The position numbers and the translations under genes are program-made. Positions 12,407 through 12,560 of a DNA stretch of 37,551 bases are shown here, piece after piece. Within the stretch, counting starts at the first letter, position 1; each line of letters starts with the position of its first letter. The notes under the pieces are model-generated. The model searched no databases, was not told the DNA's origin, and saw nothing but the letters and a program-made list of their open reading frames with translations. The DNA lies in the UHGV virus genome UHGV-0071294; one strand, written 5' to 3'. This DNA is from a virus.

Positions 12407-12482
12407 GCCGACTTAGCTCAGCAGGCAGAGCAACTGACTTGTAATCAGTAGGTCACCAGTTCGATTCCGGTAGTCGGCACCA
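12407..12482 (+). tRNA. tRNA-Thr (anticodon UGU)
   Basis: Hand-folded cloverleaf: acceptor GCCGACT/AGTCGGC, anticodon stem ACTGA/TCAGT, loop CTTGTAA, T-loop TTCGATT, 3' CCA encoded; one mismatch in the T-stem. Confidence 0.75.
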
Positions 12483-12485
12483 TAT

Positions 12486-12560
12486 GCGGGTATCGTATAA
12501 TGGCTATTACCTCAGCCTTCCAAGCTGATGATGCGGGTTCGATTCCCGCTACCCGCTCCA
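12486..12560 (+). tRNA. tRNA-Gly (anticodon UCC)
   Basis: Hand-folded: acceptor GCGGGTA/TACCCGC, anticodon stem TCAGC/GCTGA, loop CTTCCAA, T-arm GCGGG-TTCGATT-CCCGC, 3' CCA encoded. Confidence 0.75.

Follow-up and report, generated by a model that had tools for sequence, protein, structure and literature searches.

A host-derived tRNA-Thr(UGU)–tRNA-Gly(UCC) gene pair in the late region of a lambdoid prophage

The virus genome UHGV-0071294 (37,551 nt; this whole stretch of DNA is referred to below as the window) is a lambdoid prophage that carries two adjacent transfer RNA (tRNA) genes, for tRNA-Thr(UGU) and tRNA-Gly(UCC), between its antiterminator gene and its lysis genes. The pair is 97% identical to the Escherichia coli chromosomal genes thrU and glyT and is one of the lambdoid late-region tRNA arrays, a class already known. 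The reading favoured here, with moderate confidence, is that of a host-derived thrU/glyT module placed in the late transcription unit, where it would raise the supply of two minor tRNAs for phage and cargo genes. The same pair is annotated in hundreds of genomes and in several deposited phages, and the finding is therefore already known. The elements of the pair are as follows.

12407–12482, plus strand: tRNA-Thr(UGU), anticodon TGT, a copy of thrU with T16C and T20C (ARAGORN and Rfam RF00005).
12483–12485, plus strand: spacer TAT, 3 nt, between the two tRNA genes (read from the sequence).
12486–12560, plus strand: tRNA-Gly(UCC), anticodon TCC, a copy of glyT in which C6:G67 is replaced by U6:A67 (ARAGORN and Rfam RF00005).

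Both genes are confirmed as genuine. ARAGORN calls exactly two tRNA genes across the 37.5-kb window, and Rfam model RF00005 (gathering score 29) accepts both, tRNA-Thr with 69.8 bits (E=2e-13) and tRNA-Gly with 65.6 bits (E=3e-12) in a search of the whole window. Each match spans the full length of the model, with one non-standard pair. CCA is encoded at both 3′ ends, and the anticodon loops have seven bases (CUUGUAA in tRNA-Thr, CUUCCAA in tRNA-Gly), with U33 and a purine at position 37. This bears out a preliminary description of the locus as two adjacent cloverleaf tRNAs with encoded CCA. The identity elements for threonyl-tRNA synthetase are G1:C72, C2:G71, G35 and U36, and those for glycyl-tRNA synthetase are G1:C72, C2:G71, G3:C70, C35, C36 and U73; all of these elements are present in the respective sequences.

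No open reading frame (ORF) of 60 aa or more overlaps the pair, and a permissive Rfam scan of 11000–13200 gave nothing credible beyond the two tRNAs. Matches in that interval to the Plastid-ycf2, miRNA, Trp-leader and STnc100 families were all far under their gathering scores and were discarded. The minimum-free-energy fold of the predicted precursor (12351–12565) did not recover the cloverleafs (z=−0.13). This fold is uninformative on a leader hairpin, and a proposed conserved leader stem, GGTTCC...GGAACC, was therefore set aside. An attachment-site remnant was likewise rejected as an explanation of the locus, as both tRNA genes are complete and occupy the middle of the late operon instead of an end of the prophage.

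Among all the host and phage tRNAs compared, the two genes are closest to thrU and glyT. tRNA-Thr matches K-12 thrU at 74 of 76 positions, the only differences being T16C and T20C in the D-loop, and its anticodon arm is identical; it has 55 matches with thrT and is 60/76 identical to the T4 tRNA-Thr and 49/76 to that of phage 21. tRNA-Gly matches K-12 glyT at 73 of 75 positions and differs only by C6T and G67A, which together form a compensatory acceptor-stem pair. Six copies of tRNA-Gly from sibling loci carry a U6-G67 wobble intermediate, which provides a simple mutational path from the host C6:G67 allele.

The preliminary description had suggested a likeness of tRNA-Gly to a T4-type phage tRNA-Gly, with the implication of exchange between unrelated phage lineages. 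Exchange with a T4-like phage is extremely improbable. The window and T4 genes do share U6:A67, where the host has C6:G67, and are identical at 65 of 75 positions. However, this is well short of the match to glyT, and at the other positions where T4 diverges (5:68, 31:39, T-stem pairs and a D-loop deletion) the window gene has the host state. Matches to T4-type phages reach only about 83–84% identity, as two separate pieces, and the U6-G67 copies offer the simpler route to the shared pair. The T4 tRNA-Gly is itself 63/75 identical to glyT, which explains the suggested resemblance. The T4 tRNA genes also resemble the pair in their anticodons UGU and UCC, tight packing and short spacers, but tRNA-Thr and tRNA-Gly are not adjacent in T4, tRNA-Pro and tRNA-Ser lying between them. 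A T4 origin of tRNA-Gly is thus ruled out by the alignments, U6:A67 being its sole T4-like character; the comparison with host and phage tRNA sets identifies the host chromosome as the source, not an unrelated phage lineage.

The host order is thrU, 8 nt, tyrU, 116 nt, glyT, 6 nt, thrT, tufB. The phage pair resembles this operon in anticodons, anticodon arms, identity elements and encoded CCA, but lacks tyrU, the 116-nt spacer, thrT and tufB, and lies in a prophage late operon with another promoter and leader. The phage TAT spacer equals the first base after thrU (T) joined to the last two before glyT (AT), host 'CCA T...AT GCGGG' corresponding to phage 'CCA TAT GCGGG', and the GATGT that follows the phage tRNA-Gly resembles the host glyT–thrT spacer AGATGT. 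In a MAFFT alignment of the region with the host operon, the phage tRNA-Gly was mis-paired with tyrU, no upstream homology was found and the flanks were not alignable; the junction argument therefore rests on the reading of short spacer matches and is weak. The most likely course is a single capture from the chromosomal thrU-tyrU-glyT-thrT operon in which tyrU was lost; recombination would then have carried the module from one lambdoid prophage to another. All 123 copies examined have TAT as their spacer, although the pattern used to find them allowed NNN at this position, and this argues for a single origin of the pair.

The fused pair is widespread. Annotated tRNA-Thr/tRNA-Gly pairs match it over its 154 nt with 100% identity in at least 27 complete genomes, among which are several enterotoxigenic strains (e.g. 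E24377A). A 61-nt query that spans the fusion junction, and so has no possible match in the host operon, located it in 881 of 5426 complete E. coli genomes, at 1102 places and up to five times per genome. The exact junction pattern occurs in at least 120 IMG/VR contigs and in Escherichia ruysiae, and the deposited phages SerU-LTIIb, phi467, vB_EcoS-683R6 and JLK-2012 carry the pair. Thr-Gly alone is found at 95 of 122 viral loci, and about 20 others add an ileZ-like tRNA-Ile(CAU) gene and an argN-like gene directly in front. Coverage of window positions 9800–16300 reaches at most 86% in any complete E. coli genome. The closest relative of the window across the region from Q to the tRNAs is sibling locus L013.

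Two records among the siblings require comment. The exact junction is also carried by L006, a 423-nt contig (NZ_RAVW01000911.1, coverage 0.67) of the Corallococcus exercitus assembly; its presence in a myxobacterial assembly is most likely contamination. In the E24377A prophage (L001), ARAGORN reports a 'tRNA-Lys(ttt)' at 12922–12998, between the Ile and Thr genes, which has no Rfam match even at E=0.01 and no RefSeq annotation, and was rejected. It is most likely a decayed argN-like tRNA, because two viral loci have an intact Arg(UCU) gene at that position.

The genes and signals around the pair in the window are listed here in order; the assignments of the protein-coding genes are from Pfam.

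8805–9854: DUF968 protein gene.
9867–10241: RusA gene.
10238–11059, plus strand: Q antiterminator gene, 273 aa (PF03589 Antiterm, E=1e-53).
11065–11107, plus strand: late promoter of the lambda PR′ type, with −35 TTGATT (11065–11070), 16 nt, −10 TAAATT (11087–11092), 6 nt and AACGATGGG (11099–11107) (read from the sequence).
11093–11109 and 11140–11159, plus strand: two terminator-like hairpins in the tR′ position (terminator scan).
11286–12026, plus strand: AraC-type regulator gene (HTH_18 and HTH_AraC).
12317–12344, plus strand: putative sigma-70-like promoter for the tRNA array, with TTGAAA (12317–12322), 16 nt and TAATAT (12339–12344) (scan, 9/12 matches).
12658–12915, plus strand: small conserved ORF, 85 aa, with no Pfam match, between the tRNAs and the terminators that follow.
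12924–12942, 12972–12989 and 13077–13092, plus strand: three tandem intrinsic-terminator-like hairpins, each with a T run, immediately 5′ of the holin gene (terminator scan).
13118–13510, plus strand: holin (Phage_holin_8), the first gene of the lysis cassette (13118–14155).
13500–13775, plus strand: second holin (Phage_holin_3_7), lysis cassette.
13772–14155, plus strand: M15 endolysin, lysis cassette.
15447–16274: K88/F4-type fimbrial subunit gene (E=4e-48).

The pair therefore lies downstream of Q and PR′ and upstream of the holin gene at 13118, all on the same strand. Its placement between a cargo gene and the lysis cassette, as given in the preliminary description, is correct, with the AraC-type gene upstream and the two holins and M15 endolysin downstream. 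That this is a slot where lambdoid phages carry tRNAs also holds, with agreement from phage 21, the E24377A prophage, JLK-2012 and the siblings: of 85 sibling loci with enough flanking sequence, 61 have a homologue of the window holin 458–2102 nt downstream on the same strand. The terminase and head genes of the window are about 75% identical to their phage 21 counterparts.

From the positions of PR′ and Q, the tRNAs would lie within the Q-controlled late transcription unit. Lambda PR′ reads TTGACT, 17 nt, TAAATT, 6 nt and AACGATGGG; its −10 element, its AACGATGGG element and the spacing between them are those of the window. In lambda, this is the late promoter together with the signal for the sigma-70-dependent pause on which Q loading depends. 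The second hairpin after PR′ (11140–11159) is kept in sibling loci L086 and L080. Although PR′ is of the lambda type, the Q protein of the window far exceeds lambda Q in length and has a zinc-finger-like motif; lambda Q probably belongs to a Pfam family other than PF03589.

A second, local promoter is predicted in front of the tRNAs. The TTGAAA/TAATAT element has an AT-rich tract upstream and lies within 230 nt 5′ of tRNA-Thr that are conserved across about 30 loci; at a locus with four tRNAs it precedes the first of them. In an alignment of 17 unique upstream versions (the window and 16 others), conservation is 0.97 for TTGAAA and 0.96 for TAATAT, against 0.61 for the 16-nt spacer and 0.60 for the next 16 nt. 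Conservation of the hexamers while the spacer drifts is the pattern that a real sigma-70 promoter would leave, and 12317–12344 is accordingly named as the predicted promoter of the array. A TTGACA at 12302–12307 (conserved at 0.88) was considered as the −35 element and dropped, no −10 element being present at 16–18 nt. On the downstream side, conservation extends to 113 of 122 sibling loci, and the trio of strong terminator-like hairpins is kept in most siblings as well as in the E24377A prophage, where an annotated 'hypothetical protein' overlaps it.

This layout of promoter, genes and terminators within a Q-antiterminated operon suggests that the pair probably has two expression modes. The local sigma-70 promoter would drive the tRNAs in the lysogen, and the three terminators would stop the transcript before the holin gene, so that lysogenic expression may be possible without triggering lysis. 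After induction, antiterminated read-through from PR′ under Q would add the second mode. RNase P would be expected to cut the dicistronic precursor at each 5′ end, with trimming at the encoded CCA ends.

The favoured explanation for retention of the pair is codon supply. tRNA-Thr(UGU) is the only reader of ACA, and tRNA-Gly(UCC) the only reader of GGA as well as a reader of GGG. Each of the two minor tRNAs comes from one chromosomal locus (host median of one locus per genome), to which the pair would add gene copies; thrU is the sole UGU tRNA gene in MG1655 (PMC12445682). Synonymous codon fractions in the window (10,913 codons) were compared with those of 81 annotated genes (29,202 codons) from two 50-kb regions of K-12, with p values from Fisher tests.

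ACA: window 0.227, host 0.116, p=2e-10.
GGA: window 0.164, host 0.082, p=2e-10.
GGG: window 0.258, host 0.134, p=2e-15.

The cognate codons are thus enriched, not depleted, and rank fifth to seventh of 59 codons by enrichment, behind AGG, AGA, AUA and CGG. The cargo genes contribute small numbers: ACA is used at 4 of 9 and GGA at 4 of 13 positions in the AraC-type gene, and at 5 of 21 and 5 of 38, respectively, in the fimbrial gene. Since these codons occur in prophage genes at about twice their host frequency, faster translation of phage and cargo genes would be the most likely benefit of the pair.

Several points weigh against this explanation. Lambda has no tRNA gene, yet the fractions of ACA, GGA and GGG are 0.14, 0.13 and 0.22 in its late genes and 0.34, 0.27 and 0.19 in its other genes. 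As a tRNA-free phage has about the same bias, the bias is general to lambdoid phages and does not on its own account for retention of the pair. The most enriched codons, AGG, AGA and AUA (4- to 7-fold), are served by neither tRNA. In addition, the tRNA promoter is a predicted consensus match with conservation as its sole backing, and the genes of the window were assigned manually from the list of ORFs. The proposal in the preliminary description that the tRNAs supplement codons of phage and cargo genes thus stands as to enrichment of ACA and GGA, and falls short in that lambda shows nearly the same bias. Codon supply is plausible, being compatible with the codon bias but not diagnosed by it.

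An alternative is that the pair is an anti-defence back-up, replacing host tRNAs cut by nucleases of rival prophages, above all P2 Old; we regard this as unlikely. Old is the effector of the classic P2–lambda interference and is triggered by lambda Gam (PMC12445682). According to this 2025 study, it kills through cleavage of the host tRNA-ThrU, its main lethal target, at sites 3′ of C28 and C40, which lie in paired CNG motifs within the anticodon stem, and phage tRNA-Thr(UGU) genes, including that of phage 21, rescue cells from it (PMC12445682). The rescuing phage 21 gene occupies the same slot as the window pair, between pR′ and the holin gene. Paired CNG motifs (C28-A29-G30 and C40-U41-G42) and A37, the features that mark Old substrates (PMC12445682), are present in the window tRNA-Gly as well, although the main text of that paper does not mention tRNA-Gly as an Old substrate.

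The tRNA-Thr of the window does not have the form of a rescue tRNA. Its anticodon arm, ACTGA CTTGTAA TCAGT, is that of thrU; the CNG motifs C28-U29-G30 and C40-A41-G42 are unaltered and the A27:U43 pair is intact. Resistance to Old requires a change in a CNG motif combined with a shorter stem, and extra host tRNA-ThrU gives 'little to no protection' (PMC12445682). By these standards, the window tRNA-Thr should be sensitive to Old. The host-identical arm is moreover found in 106 of 120 sibling tRNA-Thr copies. The papers on PARIS and on retrons do not mention Thr or Gly tRNAs.

Some siblings differ. In L013, L019, L059, L010 (arms ACTGACTTGTAATCACC / ...ATC) and JLK-2012, tRNA-Thr has G42T/C and T43C, which alter the 3′ CNG motif and remove the 27:43 and 28:42 pairs, and G30T is found in L006 and L068. 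These changes in a thrU-derived gene are of the two-factor type linked to Old resistance in PMC12445682. A further proposal places the module at one stage of an arms race with tRNA-cutting Toprim nucleases, of which P2 Old is an example. The window would carry an 'unarmoured' ancestral form acting only through the dosage of two single-locus tRNAs, both of which bear the marks of an Old substrate (paired CNG motifs and A37); the derived forms would be the G42T/C and T43C stems and the anticodons switched to UUU (Lys) and UCU (Arg), and counter-defence would be primary and codon supply secondary. This is quite unlikely.

The switched anticodons occur on otherwise thrU-like bodies. SerU-LTIIb (L002, 1122–1197) has a UCU ('Arg') anticodon through G35C, together with G24A and A31G. 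Six loci (L039, L058, L074, L076, L087 and L101) have a UUU ('Lys') anticodon through G35T, together with A26G, with A73 kept. tRNA-Lys(UUU) is a target of several anticodon nucleases.

The pair could also be a near-neutral passenger in a recombination-prone lambdoid junction, carried along with the adjacent lysis cassette; this, too, is rather improbable. The neighbours upstream vary among siblings (a methylase in 29 loci, AraC-like genes in five and several Q types), and the downstream 500 nt and the holin gene are conserved. In JLK-2012 (L132, 2495–2570), positions 1–26 of tRNA-Thr are those of phage 21 (L130, 39671–39746) and the rest is of thrU type, followed by the TAT spacer and tRNA-Gly as in the window; such a mosaic indicates recombination between two tRNA-Thr lineages inside the gene. 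Degenerate tRNA copies also exist among the siblings. Most copies, however, are intact, and the constancy of the spacer and of the host-identical Thr anticodon arm is not what a passenger would predict. The same applies to the compensatory nature of the stem change in tRNA-Gly and to the promoter hexamers kept while their spacer drifts. Furthermore, the tRNA-Thr(UGU) gene of phage 21 is so distant from that of the window (49/76) that it must have been acquired independently, in the same slot.

Among the closest known systems are records with the same fused pair. The deposited phages SerU-LTIIb, phi467 and vB_EcoS-683R6 are 97–98% identical and, like the E24377A prophage, carry it in the slot before the holins, in E24377A as Ile, Thr and Gly. 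Related records have a DNA methylase, additional Ile(CAU) and Arg(UCU)-like tRNAs or toxin genes upstream, whereas the window has the AraC-type gene. Phage 21 has a compact tRNA-Asn/tRNA-Thr(UGU) pair between pR′ with its terminator and the holin gene. The slot and the UGU anticodon are those of the window, but the anticodon stem of its tRNA-Thr (tRNA-Thr21) is altered and shortened (GTCGC...GCGAA) and the partner is Asn, where the window keeps the thrU arm and has Gly.

The ileZ-argN-argO array of Shiga toxin (Stx) phages such as 933W is a comparable set of minor-codon tRNAs in the late operon downstream of Q. An Stx2a phage with Met/Ile, Arg and Arg tRNAs near stx has been described (PMC7946995). 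That array serves AUA, AGA and AGG, the three codons most over-represented in the window, which nonetheless encodes no tRNA for Ile or Arg; the pair serves ACA and GGA/GGG instead. Among the papers searched, none was devoted to the Thr-Gly pair or to ileZ-argN-argO.

The discovery value of the pair is small, as it is annotated by standard pipelines and present in about one in six complete E. coli genomes. It does touch on the open question of why temperate phages keep tRNA genes. The family forms a natural allelic series, with host-identical arms in most members, stems of the Old-resistance type in a few and switched anticodons in others, which would allow codon supply to be tested against defence evasion. 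Many lambdoid phages carry toxin genes in the same late operon. Extra copies would raise the dosage of two single-locus tRNAs and could affect horizontally acquired genes rich in ACA or GGA.

The region between PR′ and the tRNAs differs among relatives. In L086 and L080, window positions 11142–11195 directly abut position 12233 onward, joining the tR′ region to the region upstream of the tRNAs. A block of about 1 kb (approx. 11193–12232), AraC-type gene included, is absent from these two loci and therefore resembles an inserted moron. The AraC-type gene has a promoter-like site of its own at 11234–11263.

The 85-aa ORF 3′ of the pair has homologues in 45 sibling loci, at a median distance of 119 nt from the pair (mostly about 100–120, range 99–1480); it could be either a real gene or merely conserved non-coding sequence. 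The fimbrial subunit gene at 15447–16274 lies by itself, flanked by the lysis cassette and the terminase genes, with no usher or chaperone gene nearby, which is an unusual place for such a gene.

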